A stretch of 63,279 nucleotides of DNA, the filler included, from Patellaria atrata CBS 101060 (Eukaryota), in the NCBI GenBank assembly GCA_010093705.1. It is 13 parts of 8 records of this genome, joined end to end, with 100 filler letters (N's around TTAATTAATTAA, not from the genome) between each part and the next. Parts side by side here need not be neighbours in the genome. Positions count along the whole stretch, not along the records: positions 36,917 to 42,742 come from MU006094.1; 12 more parts are not named here. One strand, given 5' to 3'. The position numbers were made by a program, and so were the translations under genes. A model generated the notes under the pieces. That model saw only the letters and a program-made list of their open reading frames with translations. It was not told the origin of the DNA and ran no database searches. Within the stretch, counting starts at the first letter, position 1, and each line of letters begins with the position of its first letter. Below, one piece after another: positions 8,886 through 63,279 of the stretch.

Positions 8886-8923
8886 GTCGCAACAGCACCA
8901 CTTCCTTGCCAGAACATCTCGGC

Positions 8924-27500: not shown

Positions 27501-27881
27501 CGTTATCCGGAACACCTGGGCATTAATAACCTCATCCGGGACCTGGACGTCTGATAGATATACATAGCACTTACTTGCACGCTGATACCAGCGGAACATG
27601 GAATTGATGGCTGTGCTGAGCTCATCACTAGTAGATTTGTTGATGCAGCAGGTATCTACCCATGAATACTCGAGCCCATCGGCTGCTGCTCTCCCAACAC
27701 AGAAGCGAATTTTGGTGTAGCCTGTCTTGTCCTTGCCTGTGCTAGCCACCAGCTCATCATAAGTGACTTCTTGACCTTCAGTCCAGGTGTGTGATAAGAT
27801 GGCATATGGAGGAGGGTTATTATCATTGAAAGAAATCAGCTTGAATTCGCCCTCTGTTGAGTGTTTCAGCAGACGTATCAT
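24594..27881 (-). CDS. Fungal NLR, HET domain - NB-ARC - TPR repeats (about 1073 aa); exons 27881-27104, 27037-24594
   Basis: HET motifs YAILSHTW, WVDTCCINKS and SRWFTRGWTLQELLAP; 66-nt intron; FVGRE, Walker A GLGGCGKS, Walker B WLMIIDNAND, ILFTTRS, YLPLAIIQAA, FDMHQLV; about nine 42-aa TPR repeats; no internal stop. Confidence 0.92.
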
Positions 27882-29035
27882 GCTGCTAGTGTGATCTCTG
27901 ACAACCAAAGAATATTTCTTTAGTTTAACCGCAATGCAATTGAACTATTGGGCTGAGATAGGAAACGCAAAAAGTACTGTAAAAGTACATAGAGCTGCGT
28001 TATATGTCTTGAACTGCTTAACGCTTATACCGAAACTCGGAACGCATCGAGCAAGCTGCAATCTGGCGGTCGGGTGGGCGCTTAGGGCTGTGTAGTTGGT
28101 GGTCGCCGTTGGGATCTATTGTCCATAAGGCTTAGAAGTCTTGGCCAGGTTATGCATCGGGACACACCGTGCACAGCCGCCCACAAAACTGTACTATTGC
28201 CAGATGAAATAAGAGAACTGATATTGAAGCATCTATTGCTATCTACTGCAATGGGGTAGAAAGATTAAGCTGAAGATATCGCACCTGACTAAGCACTCAG
28301 TCGGGTGTATATGCTCTCCTCCTCCAGTCTCCTCTGGATCGGACACTTCAATCCACATTCTTCACTTTACATGCCATTACCACCTTACAGAAGAGGAGAA
28401 GAAAACCCGGATTTTATAAGGCCTTTATTGCTGTGGGCGCTTAGCTGGCCTGTAGCTAAGGTCCAGGAAGGACAAAAAACCTCACAACCAATTTTATCAC
28501 CTGCATTGGAGCTGAAATGCATTCCATTCAAATCAGGACGTTTATTCCGTAACCAGTTCTGAGAGTTGCAGACAATGCAGCCTCAGAATAGTGGAGCAAT
28601 TGATGGCCAAAGTGATGAGATAGAAGGCCTAGTAAAAGCTATTACGGGAGAGAACAGTCCCGCAAAAAAACTTTTTACTACTTTAACGTCAAAAAGCCCA
28701 CTATTAAAATCAGAAATCCATAAAGAACTCAAATCTGAAGGTTGCTGATAATACAGTCTCCAAGCAGGAGTGCTATTGATAATAAAAGAGATAGAAAAAG
28801 AGGAAATGAAAATTCAACATCACTGTCAAACCCAACCTTGACAAATCTAACCAACCAAACTAGGCAAATGAGAGCTGCAAAACCCCAACATCTAGCAGAG
28901 GATATTAATGGAAAAAACCAAGATGACTCTGATCACATGAAGTCGGGTGATGAATCAGAAACTGGTTCAGTAATCGAGTAATCTAAGCATAAACAAAACC
29001 CCTCCATTGCCATTAGTCTCATCTGTTGGGGTAAC

Positions 29036-29850: not shown

Positions 29851-32800
29851 CCTCACTCGTTGTCTGCATGTTCCTACAACTTGTGGCCGTAACACTATCC
29901 TCCCCCTTCTCAACTCTTGTCCAAAGAGTTTGTTTCTTTTGCTTGGGTATATAATAGACGTGTCGCCCATCTATCAAGTCGTACGCACCTCTCTTTCTCT
30001 TTTTCCGAGATGCCAAAAGCTGAACCCCGTCCAGTCCGCCGCCGACGTTACGCTGCCCGTGTTGCTCTACACGGTCGTCCCATGCCGACTCCCTGTTCCG
30101 CTTGTCGTCGTTTCTCTCGTTCTTGTATTGTCGATATTCCTTCTGGTTTCTGTTCTGAGTGTCTCGCTCGTGGTTCAAAATGCGATCTTGTGGTGACACA
30201 AAAGGATTGGGATAAGCTCGATGCTTTAAAGGCTCGTACCCGCTCCGAGCTAGCTGCTGCTGAGGATGAGCAAGAATCCCTCCAGGCTCGTGTGCGTCGC
30301 CTTCGCAAACAACTTCGTTCTCTTGAGGAGAAGGAATTTGAAATGTCTCGCCGTGAGCTTGGTTCCATTGAGGAACTTGAGGCTTTGGAGCGAGCAGCTA
30401 AAGGGCAGCGAGCTTCCTCGGTCGCTCCTTCTTCCTCCGCTGTCGTGTCTCCTTCTGGTTGGTCTGGTTTGGATTTCTCTGCCCTCGAGGGTCTGGAATT
30501 CCCTGGTTTTGGTGATGAAACTGTTCAAGTTTCTGATCGCAGTTCGTCAAGTGTTTAAGTGGTTCCCACGTGTTATCTACGTGTTCGTAGCCTTTCCATT
30601 TTACTAAGTACTTATACTAACCATCTACTCGTTGCAGGTCTAAGATTCGTTCTACCTCGTAGATATCTTCTTCCTCGAGTTCTGTGGGTCGTGTTTGGAG
30701 TTTGGCGTTAGCATGTGCTGGTTTTAGGAGTGATACATGGAAAACTGGGTGTATCTTCATTCCTTATGGTAATTCCAACTCATAATTGACTTTTCCTTTG
30801 ACCTGTTTGATTTTAAAAGGGCCGATTTTCTTGTGGTCTAGTTTCTTGTTAGGTCTTTTGGTTTTGAGGTTTTTCTGTAACAAGTAAACTTTGTCCCCCC
30901 TTTTAAAGGTCGGTTCCAGCGACCTATGCTAGTTACTGTACTTCGTAGCTCTTATCGTCTGGAAAGCTATGTCTCGTGATAGCTGTGCGTGCAATTCCTT
31001 GATTTGCTCGACTTTTAACGCTGCTTCTTGTGAAATACTCTAAATTGTTCTCGGCTCACGATATGCTTCTGGTTCGAAACCATAGTTCGCATAGAAGGGT
31101 GAAACCTTCGTGGTATCGGATTTCGCGCTGTTGTATGCGAATTGTGCCATTGGTAGCAGCTCTACCCAGTTGTTTTGCTGGTAATTCACATAATTGCGTA
31201 AGTATTGCTCTAGAGATTGATTCATTCTCTCAGTTTGGCCATCTATTTGTGGGTGGAAGCTCGTTGATAGCTTATGGTTCGCCCCTAAACTCTGTACTAG
31301 AGTCTGCCAAAACGCTGATTTAAACAGTTTATCTCTATCTGAGATAATCTCTCTCGGCATCTAGTGATTTGCTAGCACTATTTTCATCACTAATGCTGCT
31401 ACTTGTGGTGCTGTCATCGTTGTCTTTACTGGTATGAAGTAGGTGAACTTTGTTAGTCGCTCCACGATAACCAATATCGCGTCATACTCTACTCCTATTG
31501 CTGGATCTTTGGATCCTGGTAGACCTGTGATGAAGTCCATTGTTATTGAGTCCCATGCTCGCTTTAGTGGCTCAATGTATTGCATTTGTCCGTAGGGTGC
31601 GTGTTTTACACTCTTATTCCGTGCGTAGTCATTACACTCTGAGATGACTTGCTTCACTGTACTTCTTACCCCCGGGAAATAGTAGTTCCTTAGGATCCTT
31701 TCCAAGGTTTTGTCAATGCCCTGGTGACCATACGCTGGTGCTTCATGGATCTCTTTGGTAAGAGTCTTTCGCAGTGTCATTGGCACATATACGAGCCCGT
31801 CGTATAGCCATGTTCCTTGAGCTGTTTATGTTGCCCTAGGGTCGTTACCCCTTCGGAACTCCTCTATCATACTGTCCTTCTGATAGGCATCACGAATTTG
31901 TTGTTCTCTCGTGGATTCGATTATTAGCATTGCAGCTAATCTTGGCTGATTGTAGGTGATCGCGTCGTTTTCTTTCTTTAGTACCGCGTCATGTACCGGT
32001 TTTGTTCCTTCTAGGTAGTCGGATCTTCTACTTATAGCATCGGCTAGTTTATTTTCAACTCCTAGTCTATGGAATATCTTGAAGTTGAAAGATACGAGTG
32101 TTTCTGCCCATCTTACTTATCTTCGATTCAACTTCTTTGTTGTGAGGAAGTTTGTCAGGTTTTGATGATCTGACCAAACTTTTACAGTGAACTTAGGTCC
32201 TTTAAGGTATGACCTCCACTATTCAAATGCGTCGACGATTGCTAACAATTCTTTGTCGTGTACGTCGTAATTTAGCTCTGCGGCCGTGAATTTCCGTGAA
32301 TGAAAGGCTACCGGGTGTAGTCGTCCTTTCTCATCTGGCTGACTTATACATGCACCTAGTGTATAATCAGATACGTTAGTCTCTAGCACTATCGATTTCT
32401 CTGGGTTAAATATAACTAAGATAGGTGCTATGGTGAACTTCTTCTTAAGTTCGTCGAATGCTTCCTAGGCCTTCTCTATCTAAATAAAGGTATTTTCCTT
32501 CTTTATTAACTCTGACAGCGGCGTTGTTACCTTCGAGTACCCCTAGATGAACTTTCTATAGTAGTTCGCGAAACCTAAAAACGATTATACATCTTTTACG
32601 TTTTTCGGTGTTGGCTAATCTTGGATTACGGCTATCTTTTTTGGGTCTACTCGTATGCCTTCAGTGGTAACGATGAAGCCTAGAAATTCCGTTTCTTTAA
32701 TATGGAATTCACACTTGTCTGGGTGTACTAGGAGTCTCTTTTCTCGTAGTTTCGTCAATACTTTCTTCACGTGCTCCCTGTGCTCTTCGAATGTTCCGTT

Positions 32801-35097
32801 CGTGTACACTAGCATATCATCTAGGTAAGTAATTATAAATACGTCCAAATACTCTCTTAGTGCATGATTAATCACTACTTGGAACGTTGCTAGGGCGTTG
32901 GTCAAGCCGAACGGCATCACTATGTATTCGTATAGTCCGAACCTCGTTCTTATAGCTGTCTTCCATTCTTCGCCTTCTTTCATTCTAATTCGATAGTAAC
33001 CGTCCCGGATATCGAATTTCGTAAACCATTTTACTCCTTATAACCTATCCTAGATTTCTGAGATTAAGGGCAATAGGTATCTATTCTTGACCGTGGCATC
33101 GTTTAGCTGTCTATAGTCGATATATAATCTCAGCTTACCATTCTTCTTTAGTATAAATAGAATCGGTGAAGCCATCGGGCTTTCGCTAGGTCGTATATAT
33201 CCCTTTTCTAAGTTGGTGCGGATATATTCTTCGAGTGCTTTATATTATTCTCTTGTCAACGGGTAAATTGGACCGGGTCGTAGTTTCGCACCCTCCTTTA
33301 GCACTATCTCATGATCCCACGTCTGGTGATCCGGAAGTACAGTCGCTATATCTTCCTCAAACAAATCTTTGAACTCGCTATACTCTTCGGGTATCTTAGG
33401 TTCTTCGGAAACCTTCTTAGCGTCTATTTTCCTAAGCTATACTACTCCTACGCTCTTAGGTTTGTTTCTGCAGATCTTTATTATCTTGTAGTGCGAAATA
33501 CGTCCTACGGATATACTAGCGTCCGTCTACTTAGTACGTCCTGTTCGCTTAACTCTATCCTTTCGTGAGGTGTCTTAGTTAATCTAGATACTTCTCGTCT
33601 TCCAGTTAATATCTAGGTTCACTATTTACAACCAGTCTATCCCTAGAATCATATCTACATCTCCTAGGTCGGTTATGGGGATGCGCTAAGTAGTTACCTT
33701 CCCTTGCACGTTGACTTCTACTGGTATAGTCCTAAAGTTAATCAGACCTCGTCTATATCCTGTTCCTTCGCCATTTCCTAGTCGCAACGGGACTGGATTT
33801 TCAAGTTTCGTGTAAGGTATACTCTTCTTTTCTACCCATCGGGGTGAGATGAACGAATCGGTGGCGCCGCTATCGACCAGCGCTGTCGTTCTCTTGCCAT
33901 GTATGGTAACATCTACCTAAAGCGTTCTATCATTGCTTCGTAGGGTCTTAAGGAACTTAGGAGCCATACTTCTCGATCGTTCCTGTCTCGAGTGGCTTAG
34001 TAGTTTTTTGCATAGCCATGCGCTAGGCAACCGGGTTCTATACACTCAGCCCAGTGTAGTCTATCGTGTCTATCGTAATACGGGCCTTTGCGGTGTTCTT
34101 CGCATTCGAGCTCTCGACACTCTCTCTTGATAACTACGTCGTGGCTAGGGTTGCTTTTGATTCCTACTCTCCACCTCTGTGCTATATGATAGTCACACCA
34201 CATGCCTCTCATTGCGCATTGTCCGAAGTCTTGTGTATCACACTTAGTAACGTGTTCGGGTACTTCTTTATCGTTTTGGAGTACTTTTGTCTCCCACGGG
34301 AATACTTTTCCTTTATAGAACTCTTCTTCTAATCCTCTATAGTACCGGCAATCCGTGCCATGTTCGCAGTCTTCCCACGTTGTTACTATACATCCTATAT
34401 GGATTAGTGTCCAATAGTGTCGCCTACACCTAAACTTGTCCATGCAGTCGAAACTATCGTACTTTCCATAATCGCCTATTGGTGGTTCGAGTTCTTGATT
34501 CTTCTCAGTTTTTCTTGTTTCATCTTCGTGGATTTTACATCCTTTCACCTGGCATTCGCCTTCAGGTAAGTGTATATGAGTAGGGTCTCGATCCCTAAAC
34601 TTCGCTATGGCCTTCTACTGTTTATGGTATAAGCAGTCATCCTCTTTACATTGCATCCATCGAAAGGCTAAACAGTCTTCTGCCCTCGGTGCAAGGTTCA
34701 ATTGTTGTTCTTCGACGACCGCGTCGGCACTGGATTCGGGTTCGATCGGTTCCCAATCTCGGAACTCTTGTTCGAGCCGTTGTTGTTGTTCCATAATCCG
34801 GTACGTGAGGCCTGGTCCGTCAGATGTTTATACTCTGATTCTCTGACCTTGATTCTGTGCTAGGCATTCTGATGCTGTGTGTGTACATATGTTTCCACAC
34901 GCCTAACATTGTTGGTTGTCTAAACGTTGTCGGAGTGTCTCCTCCTCCAGCCAGTTTCCTGCTGTTGGGAACGGCGTTGGTGGCCTGCTCACCCCCGTCT
35001 AGTATGGTAGCGGCATTTCCTCAATCTCTTCTTCTTCAAGCGATGAGACTGGTGATGGTGGTGTCAGGTGCATGACTCTGAGTTGCATACGTCGGTT
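29851..35097 (-). mobile_element. Ty3/Gypsy chromovirus family A, copy 1 (gag 3' part, PR, RT, RNase H, IN, chromodomain, PPT, start of 3' LTR); RIP-damaged
   Basis: ALVDSGAT (protease), YLDD (RT), integrase HHCC, ITMDFI, SDRD and HPQIDGQTER, GPF motif, chromodomain YLVKWKGY...TWEP; PPT at 29895-29910 next to LTR start TGTTACGG at 29894; many CAR>TAR stops. Confidence 0.95.
30010..30558 (+). CDS. Antisense accessory ORF of Gypsy family A: Zn2Cys6-like cluster plus coiled coil (182 aa)
   Basis: CSAC-x6-C-x8-CSEC-x6-C; TATATAA at 29948; homologous copy at 45005 with many synonymous differences. Confidence 0.75.
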   Translation: MPKAEPRPVRRRRYAARVALHGRPMPTPCSACRRFSRSCIVDIPSGFCSECLARGSKCDLVVTQKDWDKLDALKARTRSELAAAEDEQESLQARVRRLRKQLRSLEEKEFEMSRRELGSIEELEALERAAKGQRASSVAPSSSAVVSPSGWSGLDFSALEGLEFPGFGDETVQVSDRSSSSV

Positions 35098-35197
35098 NNN
35101 NNNNNNNNNNNNNNNNNNNNNNNNNNNNNNNNNNNNNNNNNTTAATTAATTAANNNNNNNNNNNNNNNNNNNNNNNNNNNNNNNNNNNNNNNNNNNN

Positions 35198-36816
35198 CAT
35201 CATCTTGCAGTGCGAAATACGTCCTACGGATATGCTAGCGTCCGTCTGCTTAGTACGTCCTGTTCGCTTGACTCTGTCCTTTCGTGAGGTGTCTTAGTCA
35301 ATCTGGATACTTCTCGTCTTCCAGTCAATATCTGGGTTCACTGTTTGCAACCAGTCCATCCCTAGAATCATATCTACATCTCCCAGGTCGGTTATGGGGA
35401 TGCGCTGAGTAGTTACCTTCCCTTGTACGTTGACTTCTACCGGTATGGTCCTAAAGTTGATCAGACCTCGTCCATATCCTGTTCCTTCGCCATTTCCTAG
35501 TCGCAACGGGACTGGATTTTCAAGTTTCGTGTAAGGTATACTCTTCTTTTCTACCCATCGGGGTGAGATGAACGAATCGGTGGCGCCACTATCAACTAGC
35601 GCTGTCGTTCTCTTGCCGTGTATGGTAACGTCTACCCAAAGCGTTCTATCGTTACTTCGTAGGGTTCTAAGGAACTTAGGAGCTATACTTCTCGATCGTT
35701 CCTGTCTCGAGTGGCTTAGTAGTTTTTTGCATAGCCATGTACCGGGCAACCGGACTCTACGCACACGGTCCAGTGTAGTTTGTCATGTCGGTCGTAGTAT
35801 GGACCTTTGCGATGTTCTTCGCATTCTAACTCTCGACATTCCCGTTTGATAACTGCGTTGTGACTTGGGTTGCTTTTAACTCCTGCTCTCCATCTCTGCG
35901 CGGTGTGGTAATCGCACCACATCCCCCTGATAGCGCATTGTCCAAAGTCTGTTGCGTCACATTTAGTAGCTTGCTCAGTGGTTTCTCCGCCGTTTCTAAG
36001 TACTTCCGTTTCCCATGGAAACACTTTTCCTTTATAGAACTCTTCTTCTAATCCCCTATGGTACCAGCAATCCGTGCCGTGTTCACAATCTTCCCACGTT
36101 GCTGCTACACATCCCGCGTGGATTAGCGCCCAGTAATGTCGTCTGCACTTCAGTTTGTCCGTGCAACTGAAACTGTCATACTTTCCACAGTCGCCTACTG
36201 GTGGTTCGAGTCCTCGGTTCTTTTCAAGTGTTTTCGTTTCACCTTCGTGGGTTTTGCACCCTCTTACCTGGCACTCGCTTTCAGGTAAATGCATATGTAT
36301 AGGGTCTCGGTCCCTGAACTTTGCTATAGCCCTCTGCTGTTTATGGTATAAACAGTCACCCTCTTTACATTGCATCCATCGAAAGGCTAAACAGTCTTCT
36401 GCTCTTGGTGCAAGGTTCAATTGTTGTTCTTCGACGATCACGTCGGCATCGGATTCGGGTTCGATCGGTTCCCAATCTCGGAACTCTTGTTCAAGCTGAC
36501 GTTGTTGTTCCATAATCCGGTATGTGAGGCTTGGTCCGTCAGATGTTTGTACTCTGATCCTCTGACCCTGATTCTGTGCTGGGCATTCTGATGCTGTGTG
36601 TGTGCATACGTTTCCACACGCCCAACATTGTTGGTTGTCTAAACGTTGTCGGAGTGTTCCCTCCTCTAGCCAGTTTCCTGCTGTTGGGGACGGCGTTGGT
36701 GGCCTGCTCACCCCCGTCTGGTATGGTAGCGGCATTTCCTCAATCTCTTCTTCTTCAAGCGATGAGACTGGTGATGGTGGTGTCAGGTGCATGACTCTGA
36801 GTTGCATACGTCGGTT
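35198..36816 (-). mobile_element. Gypsy family A, second gag-3'/protease segment (less RIP; gag open 36807-35716)
   Basis: Colinear with 33480-35097; zinc knuckle CWACGNVCTHTASEC, Cys/His repeats, A_AAA_AAC slip site, ALVDSGAT. Confidence 0.92.
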
Positions 36817-37192
36817 NNNNNNNNNNNNNNNNNNNNNNNNNNNNNNNNNNNNNNNNNNNNTTAATTAATTAANNNNNNNNNNNNNNNNNNNNNNNNNNNN
36901 NNNNNNNNNNNNNNNNGTTCACGAGATAACGTTTATTCAGGGCTTCAAAAAGATATAATATTCAGCTTCAACAGTTATCTGGTTGTAAAGCTACATCAAG
37001 AAACATAAAAATGCGATGATTCTGGCGGGGTGTGGTGTGCGATGATGTGGTGTAGCCAAGAGTTCACGATGTTTCGAAAGTCACAGTAAGGGCAAACCAA
37101 GCTAGTGTAGATTGAGCCGTGGAGCGGTTTCCTAGTAGTAGATTGTGTTAAAGAATATTTATGTGATGGCTCTCCACAATAGGACATTGCAC

Positions 37193-37300
37193 TTTTTTTT
37201 TTTATTGAACTTTACAGCCGAAGCTGTCTAAGCAATCCGCGGCGCCTTAGAGTTTGTTTTGGTTGCCTCTAGTCAGCATTCTCGTCCAGGACATTAAATG
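37193..37300 (-). mobile_element. Short LINE-like 3' tail
   Basis: The minus strand reads ACAGCTTCGGCTGT hairpin, AATAAA and poly(A). Confidence 0.4.
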
Positions 37301-37422
37301 CATACTGTTCGTCTTGCAACCGATTGGTTCGGATTATCCCGCCGGTGTTTTCCCCTAAACCACAACCACTATAAACAAACCTTACCTAACAAATCTCGTC
37401 CCATTATTATCATCGCACCACC

Positions 37423-39774
37423 ATGTCCCAACAATCGCCCGATTACAAACGACTTTGGCTTGAAGAGCAATGCAGGCGGCAAGAAGCGGAACAAGCCCGC
37501 GAAGAAGAGCAGCGCAGACGGGAAGAGGAGCAGCGCAGACGGGAAGAGGAGCAGCGCAGACGCGAAGAAGCAGAGCTGGCACAGGAAAAAGCTGAAGAGA
37601 AAACCCGCAAGACGACTCTTCCCGAGTTCCTCGATGCCTGTCACAATCATCTTCACTCAAATCTCGCCGTTCAGACCAATGTGTCGTTGTCGACGCGAGG
37701 CGGCCCTGCGAATGCGAATAACAAGCTTCGACCCGAAAGGGTCCTTATATGGGACGATTTCGCGGCGCATCAGGAAGCGATCTGGGACGACCTTATGAGT
37801 TTGGATTTTGTCTCGGAGCGGCACTTCACCTCAGTGCATACCCTGACAGAGTCTGGGGAGGCTGTCCGACGGAGGATGTTGAGTTCTGAGCTAGACCTAA
37901 ACGTCTTTCAGCGCTCCACTGTCGAGGACCCGGTATCACTGATTATCAAACAAATGTACAACGACCGATCGCTTCGACGGAAGTTTCGTCTACAAGGTTC
38001 TATAAGCTTCGAGAATCACGCCAACACCCTCAGCACGGAACTACTCGAAGAGGGCATAGAGCAAACGACGCTATCGGGAACTCAGCCACGACGGTCACCA
38101 CGCTTACAGGCTCAGTCCAAAGATGCAAGGCCATTAAGCTCGACAGACCCAACAGAATCGACCGCAATTCGCGTAGCAGCACGACCGTCCCGTCCTCGTG
38201 CAGATCAATTTTGCGTCTATAACATAAGCACTCAGAACATAGAGAATCGCATTGCCGCCTTCATTGTTGAATATAAGGCGCCACACAAGCTCCCGCTCAG
38301 TTATATCTACGAGGGTCTAGATGATATGGAACTCGAGGACGTGATCCAGTGTCGCGAAACTGATACTCCGCGAGACCACTTTCGTCGACTAATGGCTGCA
38401 GTCATCACACAAGCATTTTCTTATATAGTGAAGGTTGGGTTAAAGTATGGTTGCGTGTGCACTGGCGAAGCATTCATCTTCCTACGGGTGCCCGATGATC
38501 CTAGGACGGTGCACTACTTCCTATCCGTCCCCAAGGGTGACGTCGGGGAATCCACAGGATGGACACCAAATTCGGGCGGAGCGAATCGCCTGCACCTAAC
38601 AGCCGTTGGGCAGATGCTGGCTTTTACCCTTCAGGCGCTGAAGACACCGCCTCGGGGTCAGAAGTGGCGGGCCGAGGCCGCCGCTCAACTGAATAGCTGG
38701 GAGGTTGTGTACGATGACATGCTGGATGTCATTCCTCTACAAGACGCGCCATCATCGGAGTACCGACCACCTCGGCACGATGTATTCCTTCGTACGTCGC
38801 CCATCCAGCTCAGGCGAAGACCAGCTCTAACTGGCTCTCCTAACTGCTCGCGACCCCAGGATCAGCATGAAGCTAGTGATGACGAGCCTGATCCGGACAC
38901 TCCAAGTCGACAAATATCCTCACCCCAATGCCCGTCTGGCACCCAAGCCACTGCCGGCAGCTCGTCGCCTAGTCGCAATTCCCGCCGAGGAGCACAAAGT
39001 GGACAATACTGTACGCAAAATTGTTTGCGCGGTTTAGTTGAGGGTGGTCCGCTCGATATGTTGTGTCCAAACGTACGCGATCACGGGGAGAGCTATCATC
39101 AGATTGATACGCCTACCTTCCTTAATCTCATTCGCCAACAACTCTCAAAAACTCTAGATATCGACTGCAATCCTGTAGGTGTTCCTGGAGCATGCGGCGT
39201 CCTATTCCGTGTCAGACTGAGATCGCACGGATACACCGTAGCCGCTAAATGCACCCCTATCGACTTCGTTCATCGCCTCAAACGGGAGGCTACCATCTAC
39301 GAGCACCTCCGTCCAATCCAGGGTATCCATGTGCCGGTCCATTTAGGTAACATAGATCTGGACACTCCCTATTTCTATGAAGGCATTACAGAGCTTGTTC
39401 ACATGATGTTTCTTAGTTTCGGAGGAAAACCTATCTATCAACACCTCACCACCAAGAACAGGCAATACATCACTCAACAGGTTGACTGCGCAGTCCGAGC
39501 AATCCATGAGCTGCGGGTTTTACATAAGGACCTTATGCCTCGTAACATGCTGTGGGATGAGGAGACTAGCCAGGTCATGGTGATCGATTTTGAGCGGGCA
39601 CAGGTTTGCGAACCACGGCCTGCCCTGGGTATCATCTCATCAAATTGGAAGAGGAAGCGAGGATTGGACTCGGAGAGAAGTCTAACGAAGCAGATAGGAG
39701 ACAGGTGTTCTGAATTTACGCGGGAGATACGACGAGCGGCTATTGAATTACACAGCTTAAAGGTGTTCGAATAG
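37423..39774 (+). CDS. Spok-like protein (coiled coil, PD-(D/E)xK nuclease, Cys cluster, kinase-like domain), 783 aa, intronless
   Basis: EEEQRRR repeats, TTLPEFLDACH, RADQFC...VEYKAPHK, ITQAFSY...TGEAFIFL, YCTQNCL...CPN..H, GACGVLF...VAAK, HKDLMPRN...IDFERA. Confidence 0.85.
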   Translation: MSQQSPDYKRLWLEEQCRRQEAEQAREEEQRRREEEQRRREEEQRRREEAELAQEKAEEKTRKTTLPEFLDACHNHLHSNLAVQTNVSLSTRGGPANANNKLRPERVLIWDDFAAHQEAIWDDLMSLDFVSERHFTSVHTLTESGEAVRRRMLSSELDLNVFQRSTVEDPVSLIIKQMYNDRSLRRKFRLQGSISFENHANTLSTELLEEGIEQTTLSGTQPRRSPRLQAQSKDARPLSSTDPTESTAIRVAARPSRPRADQFCVYNISTQNIENRIAAFIVEYKAPHKLPLSYIYEGLDDMELEDVIQCRETDTPRDHFRRLMAAVITQAFSYIVKVGLKYGCVCTGEAFIFLRVPDDPRTVHYFLSVPKGDVGESTGWTPNSGGANRLHLTAVGQMLAFTLQALKTPPRGQKWRAEAAAQLNSWEVVYDDMLDVIPLQDAPSSEYRPPRHDVFLRTSPIQLRRRPALTGSPNCSRPQDQHEASDDEPDPDTPSRQISSPQCPSGTQATAGSSSPSRNSRRGAQSGQYCTQNCLRGLVEGGPLDMLCPNVRDHGESYHQIDTPTFLNLIRQQLSKTLDIDCNPVGVPGACGVLFRVRLRSHGYTVAAKCTPIDFVHRLKREATIYEHLRPIQGIHVPVHLGNIDLDTPYFYEGITELVHMMFLSFGGKPIYQHLTTKNRQYITQQVDCAVRAIHELRVLHKDLMPRNMLWDEETSQVMVIDFERAQVCEPRPALGIISSNWKRKRGLDSERSLTKQIGDRCSEFTREIRRAAIELHSLKVFE
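37501..37563 (+). repeat. 3 x 21-nt tandem repeat encoding EEEQRRR
   Basis: GAAGA(A/G)GAGCAGCGCAGACG(G/C) three times. Confidence 0.95.
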
Positions 39775-40789
39775 CGGTTCCTCGAAAACTAGAGCACCCA
39801 GGGCAAATTCAGGAAGTGAGATCTAAGATTCCCCAATCGAGGACAGGAAGAACCGAGTTTTAGGACTACAATTCAAAATTCCTATTGCATGGAACACCTG
39901 GCGAAAGGGAGGTAATTCACACAATCAGTTAGTGTTCTCGAAAATGCTTCCGCTAAGTCTATTTTCGAAAACCCGCTTATTAGGGGCAATCGGATTACGA
40001 AAGTGATAAACACTCGCGTAAGCGCCTTATTAATGCTATAATTATATATTTTACTTACAGCTACAAATAGTCTTTTGGTTCGTGGCTTTAGACACATTTC
40101 GCTTTAAGATGGGAGGAAATCTTTACTTTGGTACGTAAGCACCTTAGGGATATTGCCCGCACCCTTAGGATTTATCAAGTCTTCGCTATGTCACCCGCTT
40201 CTACAATTTCACAACGATCTTCTGGCAACTACATTCTAATAGCGATCCCTCAAGGTAATCGATCCCGATCCTTCCCATGGCCCGTTGACCAGCTGTCGTT
40301 AATGGTGGTAAGATTTATTGTTCACCTCGTCAGCTCACGGTCTCCATTTGGACGCTGCAATCACACCGCAACCCAGTATTTATCGTCCAAGCACATCCCA
40401 TACCACAAAACAAAAGATCAGACTTACAATAATAGACAATGTTATTAGATCTGCTGGTGGAAATTCCTGTGACGATTTTCAAGTGGATAGGTTTGTTCCA
40501 AAGTCAGTAAAGCTAGACCGGCGAACTTAAACAGCCATGGGAACGTAAGGACTTAAAGCATCTATGCGAAGTTTCAACTCATCTTTCCGACATTATCACC
40601 CCGATATTGTATTAAACAATCGCTTTTGGAACGGAAGACGAAGATTCCCTAGAAGATATAACTAGCTAGAGCCTAATAGTATAGACGTGTCCTGAACCCG
40701 AAGATCAGCCAGTAAGCTTCTCCTTAAACCTGCCCTCGGCCTCTTCTCTTCTTCTTTATCTTGATTGTAGATAGCATCTAGACTAGATA

Positions 40790-42742: not shown

Positions 42743-42842
42743 NNNNNNNNNNNNNNNNNNNNNNNNNNNNNNNNNNNNNNNNNNNNTTAATTAATTAANN
42801 NNNNNNNNNNNNNNNNNNNNNNNNNNNNNNNNNNNNNNNNNN

Positions 42843-43103
42843 CCTAGGCAACCTCTACGCCGACCAAGGCAAGCTGACCGAGGCGGAGAAGCTGTACATT
42901 CGGGCGCTGCAAGGCTATAAGGAGGTACTTGGACCAGACCACACATCGACACTCGATACGATCAACAACCTAGGCAACCTCTATAGGAATTAAGGTAAGC
43001 TAGCCGAGGCGGAGAAGATTTAAATTCGGGTGCTATAAGGCTACGTAGAAACTCTTAGCCTCGAGCTTATACCGTTATATTTACCAACTTTAAACGCTAT
43101 AAT
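42843..43103 (+). pseudogene. RIP-inactivated NLR-type TPR repeat fragment
   Basis: LGNLYADQGKLTEAEKLYIRALQGYKEVLGPDHTSTLDTINNLGNLYRN*GKLAEAEKI*IRVL*GY; two of the three stops sit where the preceding repeat has CAA. Confidence 0.8.
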
Positions 43104-43796: not shown

Positions 43797-44835
43797 TGTT
43801 AGATAGTGAGGCTCGCTACCGGGTAAATGGATGCTTACTAGTTCAAAACAGTGGTGAAAACAATGGTATGGAACGGTAGCTTGAGACAGTGCGTTAAACC
43901 GTATTAAAACAGATCTCTGACGAGAGCACGGATCTATGGTGTTTTATCTGTTCTCTTTCTGACCCAGTATCATTGTCAACTGTTCAGTATATAGTTCCTA
44001 TCTCTCTCAGTAGTTGCAAATCAAGCGATATNNNNNNNNNNNNNNNNNNNNNNNNNNNNNNNNNNNNNNNNNNNNNNNNNNNNNNNNNNNNNNNNNNNNN
44101 NNNNNNNNNNNNNNNNNNNNNNNNNNNNNNNNNNNNNNNNNNNNNNNNNNNNNNNNNNNNNNNNNNNNNNNNNNNNNNNNNNNNNNNNNNNNNNNNNNNN
44201 NNNNNNNNNNNNNNNNNNNNNNNNNNNNNNNNNNNNNNNNNNNNNNNNNNNNNNNNNNNNNNNNNNNNNNNNNNNNNNNNNNNNNNNNNNNNNNNNNNNN
44301 NNNNNNNNNNNNNNNNNNNNNNNNNNNNNNNNNNNNNNNNNNNNNNNNNNNNNNNNNNNNNNNNNNNNNNNNNNNNNNNNNNNNNNNNNNNNNNNNNNNN
44401 NNNNNNNNNNNNNNNNNNNNNNNNNNNNNNNNNNNNNNNNNNNNNNNNNNNNNNNNNNNNNNNNNNNNNNNNNNNNNNNNNNNNNNNNNNNNNNNNNNNN
44501 NNNNNNNNNNNNNNNNNNNNNNNNNNNNNNNNNNNNNNNNNNNNNNNNNNNNNNNNNNNNNNNNNNNNNNNNNNNNNNNNNNNNNNNNNNNNNNNNNNNN
44601 NNNNNNNNNNNNNNNNNNNNNNNNNNNNNNNNNNNNNNNNNNNNNNNNNNNNNNNNNNNNNNNNNNNNNNNNNNNNNNNNNNNNNNNNNNNNNNNNNNNN
44701 NNNNNNTGGTGTTTTATCTGTTCTCTTTCTGACCCAGTATCATTGTCAACTGTTCAGTATATAGTTCCTATCTCTCTCAGTAGTTGCAAATCAAGCGATA
44801 TATTCAGTGCACCTGCAGATCCAGTTTATCTCACA
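43797..44835 (+). mobile_element. Copia LTR insertion (solo LTR or collapsed element across the N gap) with TCTCT target-site duplication
   Basis: TGTTAGAT...ATCTCACA termini; TCTCT at 43792-43796 and 44836-44840; sequence duplicated on both sides of the gap. Confidence 0.85.
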
Positions 44836-45004
44836 TCTCTCTTTCCCTCACTCGTTGTCTACATGTTCTTATAACTTGTGGCCGTAACACTATTCTCCCC
44901 CTTCTCGACTCTTTTCCCAAGAGTTTGTTTCTTTTGCTTGGGTATATAATAGACGTGTCGCCCATCTATTAAGTCGTACGCACCTCTCTTCCCTTTCTTT
45001 CGAG

Positions 45005-45603
45005 ATGCCAAAAGCTGAACCCCGTCCAGTCGTCGACGTTACGCTGCCCGTGTTGCTCTACACGGTCGTCCTATGCCGACTCCCTGTTCCGCTTGTCGTC
45101 GTTCCTCTCGTTCTTGTATCGTGGATATCCCCTCTGGTTTTTGCTCTGAGTGTCTTGCTCGTGGTACCAAATGCGATCTTGTGGTGATATAAAAGGATTG
45201 GGATAAGCTCGATGCTCTAAAGGCCCGAACTCGTTCTGAGTTAGCTGCTGCTGAGAACGATGAAGAGCTTACTCTTGACCACGAGGAGCAAGTCCGTGCT
45301 CAGGCGAGTGCTCAGGTGAGGGCCGCTCGTGCCCGTGCCCGTCGTCTCCGTCGGCAACTCCGTTCTCTCGAGGATAAAGAGTTTGAGATGTCTCGTCGTG
45401 AGCTTAATTCCATCGAGGAACTTGAGGCTTTGGAGCAAGCAGCCGAAGGGCAGCGAGCTTCTTTGGTCGCCCCTTCTTCCTCTGCTGTCGTGTCTCCTTC
45501 TAGTTGGTCTGGTTTGGATTTCTCTGCCCTCGAGGGTCTAGAATTCCCTGGTTTTGGCGATGAAACTGTTCAAGTTTCTGATCGCAATTCGTTAAATGTC
45601 TGA
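45005..45603 (+). pseudogene. Second, disrupted copy of the antisense Zn2Cys6-like ORF
   Basis: 4-nt deletion near the start and a CAA>TAA stop at about 45190; otherwise colinear with 30010-30558, plus 18 extra codons. Confidence 0.8.
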
Positions 45604-46214
45604 GTGGTTCCCACGTGTTGTCTGCGTGTTCGTAGCCTTTCCACTTTACTAAATACTTATACTGACCATCTACTCGTTGTAGGTCCAAGATTCGTTCTAC
45701 CTCGTAGACGTCTTCTTCTTCGAGCTCTGTAGGTCATGTTTGAAGTTTGGTGTTAGCATGCGCTAGTTCTAGGAGTGATACATGGAAAACTGGGTGTATC
45801 TTCATTCCTTGTGGTAATTCTAACTCATAATTGACTTTTCCTTTGACCTGTTTGATTTTAAAAGGTCCGATTTTCTTGTGGTCTAGTTTCTTGTTAGGTC
45901 GTTTTGTTTTGAGGTTTTTCTGTAACAAGTAAACTTTGTCCCCCCTTTTAAAGGTCGGTTCCAGCGACCTATGCTGATTGCTGTACTTTGCAGCTCTTGT
46001 CGTCTGGAAGGCTATATCTCGCGATAGCTGTGCGTGCAATTCTTTGATTTGCTCGACTTTCAACGCTGCTTCTTGTGAAATACTTTGAACTGTTCTCGGC
46101 TCACGATATGCTTCCGGTTCAAAACCATAGTTCGCATAGAAGGGTGAAACCTTCTTGGTATCGGATTTCGCGCTGTTGTGTGCGAATTGTGCCATTGGTA
46201 GTAGCTCTACCCAG

Positions 46215-46352
46215 TTTTTTTTTTTTTTTTTAATTCCATTGTATTGTATTACCTACAATACTGCGCATGCAGCCTTTAAGCTATGGCGCAACTTCCTATA
46301 TGCATAAATCCCTTTTCAGGGCCCTTATATGCTTAGTGAAGTCTTCAGTAGC
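46215..46352 (-). mobile_element. LINE 3' end inserted into the Gypsy integrase
   Basis: Poly(T) plus the shared 3' UTR abuts the integrase sequence. Confidence 0.85.
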
Positions 46353-46551
46353 TGTTAGATGGTGAGGTTCGCTACCGGGTAAATGGGTGCTTACTAGTTC
46401 AAAACAGTGGTGAAAACAATGGTATGGAACGGTAGCTTGAGACAGAGCGTCAAACCGTATTAAAACAGATCTCTAACGAGAGTATGGATCTGTGGTGTTT
46501 TATCTATTCTCTTTCTGACCCAGTATCATTGTCAACTGTTCAGTATATAGT
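46353..46551 (+). mobile_element. Copia LTR 5' part inserted into the LINE
   Basis: Near-identical to 43797-43995. Confidence 0.85.
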
Positions 46552-46651
46552 NNNNNNNNNNNNNNNNNNNNNNNNNNNNNNNNNNNNNNNNNNNNTTAAT
46601 TAATTAANNNNNNNNNNNNNNNNNNNNNNNNNNNNNNNNNNNNNNNNNNNN

Positions 46652-48331
46652 ACACCTGCAGTATATAACAGCTAGATAGAACCTCTCTTTTGAGAATCAA
46701 GCGACATATTCCATGCACCTGCAGATCCAGTTTATCTAACAGTTATGAGCCCGGCCTTTGTGCTATTTTGAAGCCGTACAACTTACTCAAATCTGATCCG
46801 TTTATACTCCTCTTTTGATCCGTTATACTCGTGTCTTTTGACGAACAGTTGAACTGTCTTCACCGTTGTTTATTAAACCCAAAATCTCTTGTGCTATCAA
46901 TTAGTTATGTCGACTTCAACAAACTTCTCGTCGTCTACCACGTCGTCCATCCTTTTAAGAGATGCCTCCGACTGGCAAGCCTGGTTCTTAGTCATCAAAG
47001 GAAGAGCCGAATTCGATCAAATATGGAAGTATTGCGATCCGGATCTCCCGTCAAAGCCGGTGTTACCATCAGGTGGAGAAACGCCACAGCATATCCAAGA
47101 CTGGGTGACGACCGGGAAGACTCCAGACGGAGAGACGAGCCAGACGATGGCACTGTTCTACAACGCCCATAGAGCTATCGCAAAGGAGCAAGACCAGAAG
47201 AGAGCTAAGATAGCCAATCTATTCACGTTGATTATTAATACAGTGCCTGCAGACAACTTACCCCTAAGTGAGGACACTAAGGAACCCTACTCGTTACTTA
47301 AAAAGCTGAAAGATCGCTTTCAGCTTAATGATTAGACGGTAAGAGAAGAGGCTTACAACAAATATAAGCATCATCTCCGTACGGCCAAAAAGACGAATAT
47401 AGACACCTGGTGTACGACCTTTTTGAATCTCTACGATAGATGCGTGTTATATAAAGTAACTGAGCTTAGTGGAGAGCAGCCAACTAGAGATGTACTGAGC
47501 TGTATCTCTAAAGCTTATCCACAGTGGGCAATATCGAAAACCGTGAGTGTGGATGAAAAGCGATTCGCTGGTCTTCAAGTCGAGGTTTCCGATATAATCT
47601 CCCATTTCCGGAACTTCCATAGAGCACAAGTCCTCAAAGAACCAACCGGAAGTGTTTTGGCTACCTTTCAAGGCCAGTCTACCACGGAAACCAACACCCA
47701 AACGTCAGTTTCGTCGGACAAGAAGTCATCCAAACCGGACACCGTGAGGATTTGCCTATGCGGAAAGGAACACCTCTGGTCTCAGTGCCAGTATATCAAC
47801 ACTAAGGTCTCCAAATCGAAAGACTACTCGGAAGCAACGCAACAGATGGTTGACACGAAGATTCCGGAGCTAACACCGTTCGGACAGACGGCTATCCGAC
47901 GTATCAAAGCCAAAGCTGGCAAATCCGACAAAAACGACAAAAGCGACAAAAGCGACTCCAAGCAAGGGGACGTTGTTGCTTTCGTTGGAGGAATCGCCTC
48001 AAGGCCGGTTGGATCCGTTCTATCAACTCTCGATTTGGAGAGCAACAACTGGCTCCATGACTCCGTTCTTTTGGATTCTGGATCTAGCCTTCATATTTGC
48101 AACGATCCAGCTCAGTTTACTATCGAAAGTTACTGTACGGAACAGTGGATTCAGGTTGGAAAGGGAACATGCCAACTCTTGGCAAAGGGTAGGTGGACTG
48201 TGGAAGTGGAAGGTCCTGTAGGAAAACGGAATCTCCACCTAACAGAAGCTTATCTCTGCCCGGATTTCAACGCCTCTGTCGTCGGCTTGAAGCTGATAAA
48301 GAAGAAGCGTGGCATCTACTGGAACCACCGA
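46652..48331 (+). mobile_element. Ty1/Copia element 5' part: LTR end (46741), PBS, gag-protease from ATG 46907 with one in-frame TAG at 47333
   Basis: PBS GTTATGAGCCC; gag DWQAW...IWKYCDP, knuckle CLCGKEHLWSQC, protease LLDSGSSLHICND. Confidence 0.9.
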
Positions 48332-48431
48332 NNNNNNNNNNNNNNNNNNNNNNNNNNNNNNNNNNNNNNNNNNNNTTAATTAATTAANNNNNNNNNNNNN
48401 NNNNNNNNNNNNNNNNNNNNNNNNNNNNNNN

Positions 48432-48727
48432 TTAGATTCTTCGTAGTTATTCTTACCATCAATCTTACCTATAGATTTGGATGTTACGGTTTTGAACTTG
48501 ACTTCACTTGTTACACTGCTTCCATACAGTACGTCTTGTCGCATTGTGAGCAGTACCTGAAGTCAAGGAGTTAGCAAGTTGTATCGACAACTTGAAGTGC
48601 CTTTATTATACGTATCCTATCACTTTGCCGAACCTACCTTTGTGGTTGACCACGTTGAGTGAGAAGCTAGGCGCGTTTCTAGACTTATCTAGTTCTATCT
48701 TGATAAGTATAGACTCCCGTTATAACA
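48432..48727 (+). mobile_element. Family A LTR 3' part
   Basis: Reverse complement of 43222-43517. Confidence 0.85.
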
Positions 48728-51259
48728 TATTTATTTAATTAATAGAGAAAATTATTTAAAAAATATAAAATATAAAAATATTATTATAAATATTATAAGT
48801 TTATATAAAATTAACTCTTTAATATAAAATTAACTTTTAAAAAATAAAAACTTTTTAAATAAAAATAAAAATATTTATAAAATAATAATTTATAAAAAAT
48901 TATTTAAAAAATATTATTATTTAATTTATATATTCTCGAAATTTATATTTAATAAGTTATTATTATTTAGAAAAGATATAAACTATAATATAATATTAAA
49001 TTAAAATAGTAATTTTATTATTAACTTTTTATATAATATATTTATCGAATATTTATAATTAATAAAGAATTATTAAAAAGAATATTTTTAAAAGAAATTT
49101 ATTATTTTAAATAAAATATTATATATATCTTTAATATTATTTATTAAGAAGTTAAAAGAAAATTAAAAATTTTATATTAATTATAAAAAGTTAAATAATA
49201 TTATTAAAAAAGATAAATATTTATTATCTTTAATTAAAGAAATATTAATATATTTTTAATAAATAAAAATATTTATAAAACTTAATATAAAATAAATATT
49301 CTATTAAATTTAAATAAAAAAATTAACTAAAAATCTTATTATCTTTTAAATTAAATATAAATTATTTAAATATAAAATATTATTTTTTAAATTATATAAT
49401 AATTTAGCCTTATTTTAATAGTTTATTAATAAAGCGTTTTTCTAATATTTAGATAACTTTTATATAATATATATTAATAATATATTAATTTATTTTAAAT
49501 ATTTATTAAAGTATTAAATTTATATCACGAAAATATTAAAAGTATTAATTAAAACTAATTTATAAATTAATATTAAGAAAAGTAAATTTTATATAATAAA
49601 AATAAGTTTTTTAACTTTATTATTAATATTAATAAAATAGCGATAAATTTAAAAAAGACTAAAATAGTTTAAAATTAAAAATTATTAATAAATATAAAAA
49701 GAATTTTATTATTTAATAGATTTTATAACTTTTATTAAAAGTTTTTAAAGAAATTTAGATAAATTATATAACTATTAATAATATAAATATAAAAAAAGAT
49801 TTAAAAATTATTTAAATAAAAAAAAGAAAAGATATTTAAAAAAATAAAAAAGTTAATTCTATTAAATTAAATATTAATATATTATAACTTTTTATTTAAA
49901 ATAAAAATTAAATTTAATTATAATAATAAAATTATTATAATAATTATATTATAACTTTATAAATATATTTAAAGACTAATTATCTTTTAAATTAAAATAT
50001 TATTAAAGATAAAATTAAAATATAAAATTTATAATAAGAAAATATTAATTATAATAAAAGTATTAATTAAATAAAAAAATATATTAATAAAATTATAATA
50101 AAATCTTTTTATTATAATTATTAATTATAAAGTATTAAAATATTTTATTATAAAATAATTATTTAATATTAAATAAATTTAATAAAATAAAACTTTCTTT
50201 AATTTTTACTTTTAAATTATATATTAGTTTAAAGTTTAAAATATTATAATAAATATATTTTTCTATAAATAAAAAGATTTAAAGATAATAAAAGATAAAA
50301 ATATTATAATATAAATTTAAATATTAATTAATTTAAATATAATAATAATATCTTTTTAACTTTTAATAAAATAATAACTATTATTTAAGAAAATATTTTA
50401 AAATAATAAAAAATATATAATTTTTAAAGAAAAAATAATAGAAAAATATATTTTAAAGTTAAGATTTAAGACTTAAATAATAATAATTAAAATAATAATA
50501 ATTAAATTTTTATAAAAGATAAAAAAAGTTAAAATTTAAAATTAAAAATTTATAATAATTAAAATCTTAAAAAAGAGAAATAATATATTAAAGAAATATA
50601 TTAACTTTACTTTTAAATTAAAGTTTATATTTATTTATTTTATAATTTTTATTATAACTAAAAAAGAAAAGAAAATTAAATATAAAATAAAAGAAAAAGA
50701 AAATATATTTATAAATTTAAAATAATATATTTAAAATAAGTTTAATTAAAAATAAAAGCTATTAATAATATATTTATTAATAAATTAAATATTAGAAATA
50801 AATTAAAAATATAACTTTTTATTAATATATTAAAAGTAAATTAAAATTAAAAAAAGATATTAAAAATTATAAAATAATTTATTTATTAAATTTAATAAAT
50901 TTATAATTTTAAATATAGATAATCTTAAAATATATTTAATATAAAATATATATAATATATTAATTATAAAATATTTAGAAATTAAAAAGATAAAAAAATT
51001 AATTTAAATATAATATTATTAATTTAAATTAATAGTTAATATAAATAAATATATTTAAAATTATTATATTTATTATTAAATATATATATTAAAAGATAAA
51101 ATTTTTAGTTTACTAAAATTATTATTAATTAAAGATAAATATTAATAATATATTATTTTTAACTTTAAATTATTTTTTAAGAATATATATAAATTTAAAA
51201 TAATATTTATAATAATAAATTAATTAAGAAAAAAAGCGATCTTATTTCTTTTATAATAA
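48728..51259 (+). mobile_element. Hyper-RIPped Gypsy family B pol (RT, RNase H, integrase)
   Basis: Colinear with 56845-59449 when C>T/G>A is allowed. Confidence 0.85.
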
Positions 51260-51260
51260 T

Positions 51261-51356
51261 ATAGTATAGCTATAGTAATCGTATTTTGACTATCTCTATT
51301 ACTAACTACTAAGTGTGGAGATTAAGTTAAGGAACAATAATATCGTGGGCCGAATA
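51261..51356 (-). mobile_element. Family B LTR 3' end
   Basis: Matches 53409-53503. Confidence 0.8.
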
Positions 51357-53680: not shown

Positions 53681-54085
53681 CCCGCCTTACTAAGTCTTAA
53701 CCTAATTATCTTTTATTTAACTAATTATAGTCACGAGATCTTTTCCGCGTCTAAGCTAGTTAAAATCTCGTATAAACTCACTAAATATAGAAATAAGACT
53801 AGTATTATAATAAGTTATTATACTCTCTATTTATCTTTTCTCGAACTATTTTATATATATTAAGATCTATCCACTTTTATTAGTCGAAATATATTTATAG
53901 TTAGTAATTAAATTTTAACTTATAAGAGGAAATATCTATTAATTCGTAAACTAATATAATTTAGATAAAATCTATTATAGATAATAGTTTTAATTAATTA
54001 CTTTAATAGTGATTTATAAAGAGCCGAAACCGTAAATTTATATACTAGTTAATAATCTTTATATCTTTATTCGTCTATAAATAGT
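53681..54085 (-). mobile_element. Older, more RIPped family B-like 3' LTR fragment, PPT and internal remnant
   Basis: GAGATCTTTTCCGCGTC shared with the adjacent LTR; pyrimidine tract next to the LTR edge. Confidence 0.5.
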
Positions 54086-56906: not shown

Positions 56907-57006
56907 NNNNNNNNNNNNNNNNNNNNNNNNNNNNNNNNNNNNNNNNNNNNTTAATTAATTAANNNNNNNNNNNNNNNNNNNNNNNNNNNNNNNNNNNNNN
57001 NNNNNN

Positions 57007-59689: not shown

Positions 59690-59789
59690 NNNNNNNNNNN
59701 NNNNNNNNNNNNNNNNNNNNNNNNNNNNNNNNNTTAATTAATTAANNNNNNNNNNNNNNNNNNNNNNNNNNNNNNNNNNNNNNNNNNNN

Positions 59790-62700: not shown

Positions 62701-63279
62701 TTCAAATATAAGGTGTTACTATTTAGTCTATATAATGGCCCCGTCTCTTTCTAACGGTTTATTAATAAGGCTCTCTTTAAATATCTAGATGACTTCTATA
62801 TAGCCTACGTGGACGACATTCTAGTCTATTCTACGTGCCCGATGGAGCATAGAGCGCACGTCACTAAGGTGCTGGAAGCGTTGGCCGAAGCTGGCCTACA
62901 GGCCGATATCAAGAAGAGCGAGTTCCACGTGACTAAGACAAGGTTCCTTGGATTTATTATTAGTACAGACGGCCTAGCTATGGACCTAGAGAAAATAGAA
63001 GTAGTCCGGAATTAGTAACTACCAACGAGCGTTAAAGGTATATAATCTTTTATCGGATTCTGTAACTTCTACCGGAAGTTCCTCGACAAGTTCGGACGAG
63101 TAATACGGCCACTGATGAGCCGTGTCAAGAAAGGAGTACCCTGGCAGCCGCTCGGGCTGAGAGAACGTGAGGCCTTTGAGAGAGCAAAACAACTGATACT
63201 ATCAGACCAAGTGATAGCGCACTACAGCCCCTTGCTAGAAACTAGGGTCGAATCAGACTGTAGCGACGGGGTAATGGCT
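59790..63279 (+). mobile_element. Gypsy family B sister subfamily: gag, frameshift site, protease and RT, lightly to moderately RIPped
   Basis: KFPDPP, CFNCGKPGHRSANC, G_GAA_AAC, WRFCVDYRKLN, YVDDIL. Confidence 0.92.

Follow-up and report, generated by a model that had tools for sequence, protein, structure and literature searches.

Among the single-gene meiotic drivers of fungi, the Spok genes are understood best, with the Podospora genes SPOK1-4 reportedly the subject of a 2014 study by Grognet, and to our knowledge only the Podospora genes and a few Fusarium Spoks have been tested to date. We examined a homologue of these genes in the saprobic Dothideomycete Patellaria atrata CBS 101060, located at positions 37423..39774 (+) of a joined stretch of 63,279 nucleotides, filler included (hereafter the window), which a first-pass annotation had called an intact Spok-like gene and a candidate spore killer. 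The reading that we favour, with moderate confidence, is that the locus encodes an intact SPOK-family member that is most likely a self-contained toxin-antidote selfish gene. The published description provides the framework for this comparison. SPOK3 carries a PD-(D/E)XK nuclease core ending in K240, a QxxxY motif that is also found in HsdR, and a catalytic D667 (Vogan 2019, PMC6660238, cited throughout from part of its text), and the cysteine cluster of the SPOK proteins is given there as C-x3-C-x13-C-x5-H-x7-H. The two activities can be separated by mutation, where SPOK3 K240A loses killing and D667A is toxic (Vogan 2019, PMC6660238). SPOK1 D680A is likewise toxic in E. coli, and SPOK1 kills via DNA targeting, according to the portion of PMC9972908 available. 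The family as a whole corresponds to IPR052396 in the accessible sections of PMC12693581, which describes the Fusarium Spoks (FuSpoks).

The reading frame and its conserved residues

The plus strand from 37423 to 39774 holds one uninterrupted open reading frame (ORF), running from ATG to TAG and encoding 783 residues plus the stop, so that the complete, intronless coding sequence (CDS) is present as the first-pass annotation had it. A frame of 783 open codons with homologues at E = 0 rules out a chance ORF. Searches recovered 630 homologues at E<=1e-3, the best at 97% identity, and an exhaustive search returned 2705 representative clusters at E<=1e-3, of which 765 reach E<=1e-30, with homology extending over the full length. 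The SPOK2_N family (PF27653) is precomputed on all 120 homologues listed, including the one that is 97% identical (KAF2843551.1), and on 95-99% of members across the three atlas clusters that lie nearest, with 2593 members in the largest. In BLASTP the ORF is 34% identical over 745 amino acids to the Fusarium poae protein P0392 (E 2e-110), which agrees with FuSpok rows of the PMC12693581 supplement alignment at its N-terminus, the N-termini being what was compared. It is also 33% identical over 724 amino acids to AJ80_09569 of Polytolypa hystricis (E 2e-100), a species whose homologue is called closely related to the Podospora Spoks (Vogan 2019, PMC6660238). Podospora is absent among the matches listed in two homologue searches (120 each), which reached Fusarium, Beauveria, Metarhizium, Polytolypa and Lasiosphaeria; SPOK3 residue numbering, used as a ranking key among the fetched proteins, gave no exact match, and a cluster look-up of 10 SPOK candidates returned Microsporum and lichen-fungus rows and no Podospora SPOK. 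Because a Podospora SPOK sequence was not recovered, the link to the published Spok family is one step removed, through Fusarium and Polytolypa. The Spok-like identity proposed by the first-pass annotation, which had allowed that homology to SPOKs might be missing, is borne out by strong end-to-end homology to SPOK2_N-bearing proteins and to Spok-clade proteins (BLASTP E 2e-100 to 2e-110), and we regard membership of the SPOK family as nearly certain.

The residues on which the Spok activities depend are conserved throughout. In an alignment of 92 full-length homologues, which are 30-99% identical to the query, 24 columns are invariant, and these include all proposed catalytic residues: E156, D261, E283, K285, K289, Q330, L354, C530, C534, C548, N550 and H554, followed by G589, G592, K609, E622, Y626, Q633, G634, P638, G668, D703, N708 and D722. 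The same 14 key positions recur in 96-105 of 105 proteins that align in full and come from the Fusarium/Beauveria/Metarhizium/Polytolypa group (Sordariomycete-type). E156 (37888..37890, +) stands at the start of a long helix and is the same in 92/92 sequences, as is the nuclease core D261...E283-x-K285...K289 (38203..38289, +), which corresponds to K240, the residue needed for killing in SPOK3. The QxxxY motif follows as Q330-x3-Y334 (38410..38424, +), with Q330 invariant and Y334 present in at least 90% of the alignment. The Cys/His cluster, C530-x3-C534-x13-C548-x5-H554-x4-H559 (39010..39099, +), has four invariant members (C530, C534, C548 and H554) and a fifth, H559, that is found in at least 90%. 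A small kinase then occupies residues ~575-735 (39145..39627, +), as delimited by Pfam, an alignment to p38 and the predicted fold. It displays a G-rich loop (G589, G592), K609, which falls on the ATP-binding lysine in the sequence alignment to p38, E622, an H701-K-D703 catalytic loop, N708 and D722-F-E. A Pfam scan of the ORF gives Pkinase (1e-7), Kdo (3.6e-7) and APH (5.2e-6), all above their cut-offs, with a weak Pkinase score of 32.1 bits against a cut-off of 31.7; the Pfam set used was without the SPOK2_N model, and only kinase families were returned. All eight residues that had been called beforehand are in place (D261, E283, K285, C530, C534, C548, D703 and D722), with ADQFC beginning at 260, EYKAPHK at 283, HKD at 701 and DFE at 722.

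Predicted structures agree with this assignment. A PD-(D/E)XK fold is assigned to residues 60-420 (37600..38682, +) by structure prediction and VIA-align. The model of residues 60-470, predicted with the 92 sequences, has a pLDDT of 86.7 and a pTM of 0.84, and forms one confident fold over the published SPOK 'domain 1' and 'domain 2', with a low-confidence loop at residues ~204-259. Foldseek of this model against the PDB returned nothing at E<=1e-3 (best BpuSI, E 0.16). VIA-align against 48,161 representative chains placed the BpuSI nuclease domain at the top (Z 9.7, root-mean-square deviation 3.8, 152 residues aligned), with DrdV (Z 7.4) and V. vulnificus HsdR 3h1t (Z 6.8) next and SgrAI, NgoMIV and EcoR124I HsdR after them. 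The rows at Z>=5.0 comprise 13 restriction-endonuclease-like nucleases and 2 mitoribosomal proteins; since Z values below 8 can arise from a common arrangement, we place weight on the top match and on the dominance of one superfamily. The 3h1t structure is also the best HHpred hit given for SPOK3 (PMC6660238). As the VIA-align alignments cover model residues ~10-350, the model points to a single nuclease fold that takes in both 'domain 1' and 'domain 2' of the published scheme and in which E156 may act as an extra acidic active-site residue. The model of residues 515-783 has a pLDDT of 90.7 and matches at least 500 kinase chains at E<=1e-3, and a sequence search of the PDB with the ORF found kinase chains alone and no solved SPOK. 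Invariant columns and both predicted folds thus bear out the nuclease D/E/K residues, Cys cluster and kinase-like C-terminus that had been described as intact, while the sequence, the profiles of near-identical proteins and the folds give the domain order that had been proposed, in which the N-terminus bears the repeat, the PD-(D/E)XK nuclease comes next and the Cys cluster precedes a small kinase.

The N-terminal repeat consists of 21-nt units encoding charged heptads (37462..37570, +), where Tandem Repeats Finder reports 5.2 copies with 77% matches, and in-frame translation reads three exact REEEQRR heptads at 37498-37560 with degenerate units on either side. The first-pass annotation had placed this repeat within a coiled coil, of which the repeat itself stands and the coiled coil appears uncertain, the hydrophobic heptad core that one would show being absent. 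Residues 18-60 are 72% charged and contain one strongly hydrophobic residue, a composition to which a charged single helix appears at least as good a fit as a classical coiled coil. The Fusarium homologues P0392, P0356 and P0382 also begin with E/R/Q-rich tandem units that vary in number (AERERQEERQRA...). Given this likeness, an N-terminal repeat that is charged and variable in length, rather than a hydrophobic coiled coil, may be a family-wide feature.

Gene model, second copy and distribution

The locus is represented in the database by KAF2839597.1 (P0270), deposited as a hypothetical protein of P. atrata CBS 101060 on a 1,498,792-base contig. This protein is identical to the ORF over residues 1-753 and then differs, and since the window codes for this other tail from 39765 onward, KAF2839597.1 is the deposited model of the ORF's own locus. 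Comparison of the two yields a GT..AG 'intron' of 83 nt (39680..39762, +), the splicing of which swaps a conserved C-terminal helix (residues 755-777; 39685..39753, +) for an unconserved tail. The unspliced tail (F765, E768, then the helix) is kept, with a similar end point, in most of the 60 homologues displayed, and AlphaFold models it as a confident helix. Spok annotations 'often ... contain false introns', in the wording of the section of PMC12693581 available. On these three grounds, the deposited 3' intron is probably false and an annotation error.

A second copy is present in the same assembly. The best database match to the ORF, KAF2843551.1 (P0002), also from P. atrata CBS 101060, agrees with it at 762 of 783 aligned positions and differs by a 14-residue gap, equal to two repeat units fewer, and by seven substitutions. 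P0002 and P0270 share a 90% cluster and lie on different scaffolds, of 3.6 and 1.5 Mb respectively, so that in place of the fixed single-copy syntenic gene which the first-pass annotation had considered, there are two loci. We compared the copies using contigs from two runs of one sample (X1 and X2; probably DNA), these contigs being mosaics. They hold both the window bases and the bases expected from P0002 at 38058, 38153, 38563 and 39124 (codons 212, 244, 381 and 568). In the 5' flank (37100..37422, +) the second-copy contigs stop matching upstream of ~37100, with loose ends at 37088-37100, and as the contig leaves the window there, the shared tract ends at ~37100; the bases at 36977-37088 are a high-copy repeat by contig depth. 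From 37100 on, 17 of the 18 listed differences are transitions, 12 of which fall in a CpA/TpG context, and this pattern, read from the bases, is the signature of light repeat-induced point mutation (RIP) after duplication. None of the seven substitutions touches an invariant column, and both copies keep open frames. The composition of the CDS is itself RIP-free (GC 0.526, TpA/ApT 0.70, (CpA+TpG)/(ApC+GpT) 1.14). Downstream, at 40029-40251, 10 sites in ~220 nt differ between read forms, all of them transitions, and far fewer are listed in the CDS (2352 nt). The copies thus begin to diverge sharply more ~250 nt beyond the stop, for which gene conversion, uneven RIP or selection acting on the CDS are possible causes.

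The distribution of the family was viewed in a quick tree (LG+G4) with 55 rows, made up of the ORF protein, 49 homologues and an outgroup of 5 distant rows, all of these from named species, three of which were checked for their class labels. The two Patellaria copies pair with a support of 100 and lie nearest to Zopfia. Many species carry several copies per genome, and three Sordariomycete rows sit in three separate spots within Dothideomycete groups, in conflict with taxonomy. This patchiness matches the literature on Spok homologues. No printed test of a Dothideomycete Spok was found in literature searches, which cannot prove absence; of the papers on Spok, Starship and Dothideomycetes, those examined name Spok in their reference lists only, and a further listing of papers had no occurrence of the word.

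Genomic setting

The surroundings of the gene were charted using Pfam scans of 80 ORFs in the 63-kb window (20 of at least 150 amino acids and 60 of at least 85), with distances given along the window. A Tle1-like hydrolase ORF lies at 4507-5451 (-), matching the catalytic domain of type VI secretion system (T6SS) Tle1-like phospholipases (PF09994, E 6e-59), and adjoins proteasome-subunit and HCNGP genes at 7859-11212. These housekeeping genes are 26 kb from the Spok homologue. Closer to it, 9.5 kb upstream, is a NOD-like receptor (NLR) gene of the heterokaryon-incompatibility type (24594-27944, -), where two adjacent ORFs of 817 and 283 amino acids carry HET, NB-ARC and TPR domains. NLRs and Spok homologues are both among the common cargo of Starships (PMC9156397). 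Downstream of the Spok gene, degenerate tandem TPR-like units at 42843-43043, with 126-nt spacing, 79% alike and with stops in the second, resemble the RIP-damaged remains of a further TPR array of NLR type.

Directly upstream of the Spok gene are pieces of a Ty3/gypsy-type long terminal repeat (LTR) retrotransposon (31361..36864, -), comprising integrase, reverse transcriptase (RT), protease and a gag-like ORF. Integrase and copia-like fragments (45734-48376) and RT fragments (61888-63012) follow further on. RIP indices mark 1-2200 (GC 0.066), 48450-51350 (GC 0.096) and 51460-63279 as heavily RIP-mutated, the first two with (CpA+TpG)/(ApC+GpT) of 0.21-0.37, an extreme RIP degradation. Direct repeats of ~750 nt, 88-93% identical, at 29851-30585 and 44846-45630 flank 15 kb with the gypsy pieces and the Spok gene, and may be two copies of one element. 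The window also contains 12 pairs of 44-N runs with 12 bases between them (e.g., 36817-36916 and 42743-42842), one such pair lying 500 nt upstream of the Spok start codon, and a single 675-N run at 44032-44706. Among the 80 ORFs scanned there was no DUF3435 Starship captain, within a window of 63 kb against a contig of 1.5 Mb and by a scan that RIP-degraded copies would escape, and no pogo-type transposase domain, which was not pursued beyond that scan. The first-pass annotation had described the rest of the contig as LINE, LTR and pogo debris. LTR pieces and RT fragments are indeed there; the description was overstated, as genes are present and a pogo domain was unseen. With the matching deposited protein on a 1.5-Mb contig, the window is not an isolated debris contig.

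Function, rival explanations and known systems

By homology with the proteins of the Podospora and Fusarium work, from which we infer the killing and resistance activities, the protein would act as both toxin and antidote. The PD-(D/E)XK nuclease in the N-terminal two-thirds (E156, D261, E283, K285 and Q330-Y334) would damage DNA, and the C-terminal Cys-cluster and small kinase (K609, D703, N708 and D722) would neutralise this toxicity for as long as the protein is still made. Loss of the gene would then be lethal to a cell or spore. Several traits are those of a selfish element: two loci differing in repeat number, multi-copy genomes, conflict between tree and taxonomy, and a RIP-free CDS beside heavily RIP-mutated blocks. 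That the outcome in nature is meiotic drive (spore killing) rather than vegetative action appears doubtful, and the caution of the first-pass annotation that sequence cannot show drive still holds.

A number of observations weigh against the toxin-antidote reading. We know of no tested member in the ORF's own Dothideomycete-dominated clade, and its identity to the nearest members of the clade with tested Spoks is only 33-34%. In the repeat region, every heptad register leaves at most 2 of 16 hydrophobic residues on a/d positions. The last histidine of the Cys/His cluster is at x4 after H554, both in the ORF and in at least 90% of the 92 homologues, against the published x7. Either copy could be impaired, given that they differ by seven amino acid changes and that several of the underlying bases are RIP-type. 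Finally, some SPOK homologues (clade I) are argued to be non-driving orthologues (Vogan 2019, PMC6660238), and several FuSpoks gave no yeast phenotype (Supplementary Figure 4 of PMC12693581, as far as that source was available).

The last two points lead to the most serious rival, which we hold to be possible but unlikely, namely that the protein truly belongs to the SPOK family yet is no driver and, as a nuclease-kinase, either serves the host or is neutral. Its catalytic residues would then be kept for that task, which might be signalling of DNA damage, defence, or recognition of non-self beside the neighbouring NLR. In addition to the clade I and FuSpok results, it can draw on the sheer size of the family (2705 clusters, with 2593 members in one atlas cluster), on the 24 columns strictly kept over 92 sequences, which suggest long-term purifying selection, and on the HET-NLR gene 9.5 kb off. 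What sets the locus apart from such a gene is the occurrence of two near-identical copies on different scaffolds, the scattered multiple copies in several species, with three Sordariomycete rows nested separately among Dothideomycetes, and the position in an island scarred by transposable elements (TEs) and RIP, since copies, scatter and island together form the pattern of mobile selfish genes and not that of a stable orthologue. A recently disabled or silent passenger, with its frame open but the copy inactive or unexpressed and heading to RIP decay after duplication, is improbable. The transitions (17/18, with 12/17 in the RIP-preferred CpA/TpG context) would fit such a fate, as would seven amino acid differences that are all substitutions of unclear effect and adjacent blocks with a GC of 7-10% and RIP indices of 0.21-0.37; yet the 783 codons contain no stop or frameshift, the invariant columns are untouched by the seven differences, and the CDS composition is without RIP (TpA/ApT 0.70, (CpA+TpG)/(ApC+GpT) 1.14). 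If the gene were simply that of a protein kinase, extended at its N-terminus by unrelated sequence, this would explain why the Pfam scan gives kinase families alone, and weakly, but the homology spans the whole length, including SPOK2_N-bearing, Fusarium and Polytolypa Spok-clade proteins, and the N-terminal part adopts a nuclease fold. End-to-end Spok homology and the nuclease fold together refute that origin, to which we give almost no credence.

Beyond the toxin-antidote reading itself lies a bolder and distinctly tentative proposal, in which both Patellaria copies would be active Spok-type killers in a Dothideomycete-dominated clade, possibly of distinct, mutually non-resistant types, with E156 and 'domain 1' belonging to the nuclease. 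Spok2, Spok3 and Spok4 are distinct, mutually non-resistant killer types, and the two Patellaria copies might be so as well because they differ in repeat number and at seven residues. If true, spore killing or toxin-antidote drive of the Spok type would for the first time have a functional case outside Sordariomycetes, in killers only about one-third identical to any tested Spok, and 'domain 1', to which the published scheme gives no function, would belong to the nuclease fold and supply the invariant E156 to the active site. More broadly, the Spok family counts thousands of proteins across Pezizomycotina. With its intact frame, its sister copy and its place in a divergent clade, the locus of this saprobic Dothideomycete is a clean candidate for asking how general killing and resistance are in the family, and the RIP-type differences between the copies bear on how duplicated drivers survive in RIP-competent genomes. 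Nothing here would surprise a specialist, as the gene is an ordinary member of a very large known family and its protein is already public.

Among known systems, the Podospora SPOK1-4 proteins, compared here by published description, share with the ORF a single intronless gene, a variable-length 5' repeat, the D...ExK and QxxxY motifs, a C-x3-C-x13-C-x5-H cluster and a small kinase with a catalytic Asp, as well as copies differing in repeat number, a TE-rich setting and V. vulnificus HsdR as structural analogue (PMC6660238). The ORF differs in being 33-34% identical to the nearest retrieved clade members, in having its second cluster His at x4 and not x7, and in a repeat that is almost purely charged heptad, with a Spok block or Starship captain unseen within the window. 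The FuSpoks have in common with it the architecture, the catalytic residues and an E/R/Q-rich N-terminal tandem repeat (PMC12693581), together with false-intron annotation trouble and a location in accessory or TE-rich DNA (PMC12693581; bioRxiv 10.64898/2026.10.04.756499, the latter also cited from part of its text). FuSpoks are tied in these sources to accessory chromosomes and Starships and to vegetative action, whereas the ORF, 34% identical, is on a 1.5-Mb scaffold and 26 kb from housekeeping genes. The type I/IIG/IIL restriction nucleases (HsdR 3h1t and 2w00, BpuSI 3s1s, DrdV 7lo5) have the same fold (VIA-align Z 9.7 to 5.8) and share the D...ExK core and QxxxY with the ORF. However, sequence identity is 7-17% and the ORF is without a helicase or methylase module, making them a fold-level analogue and not the same family. 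Small eukaryotic-like kinases (Kdo/WaaP, APH, RIO) resemble the ORF kinase in being short and ending soon after DFx, while that of the ORF is fused to a nuclease, preceded by the Cys/His cluster and trailed by a conserved C-terminal helix.

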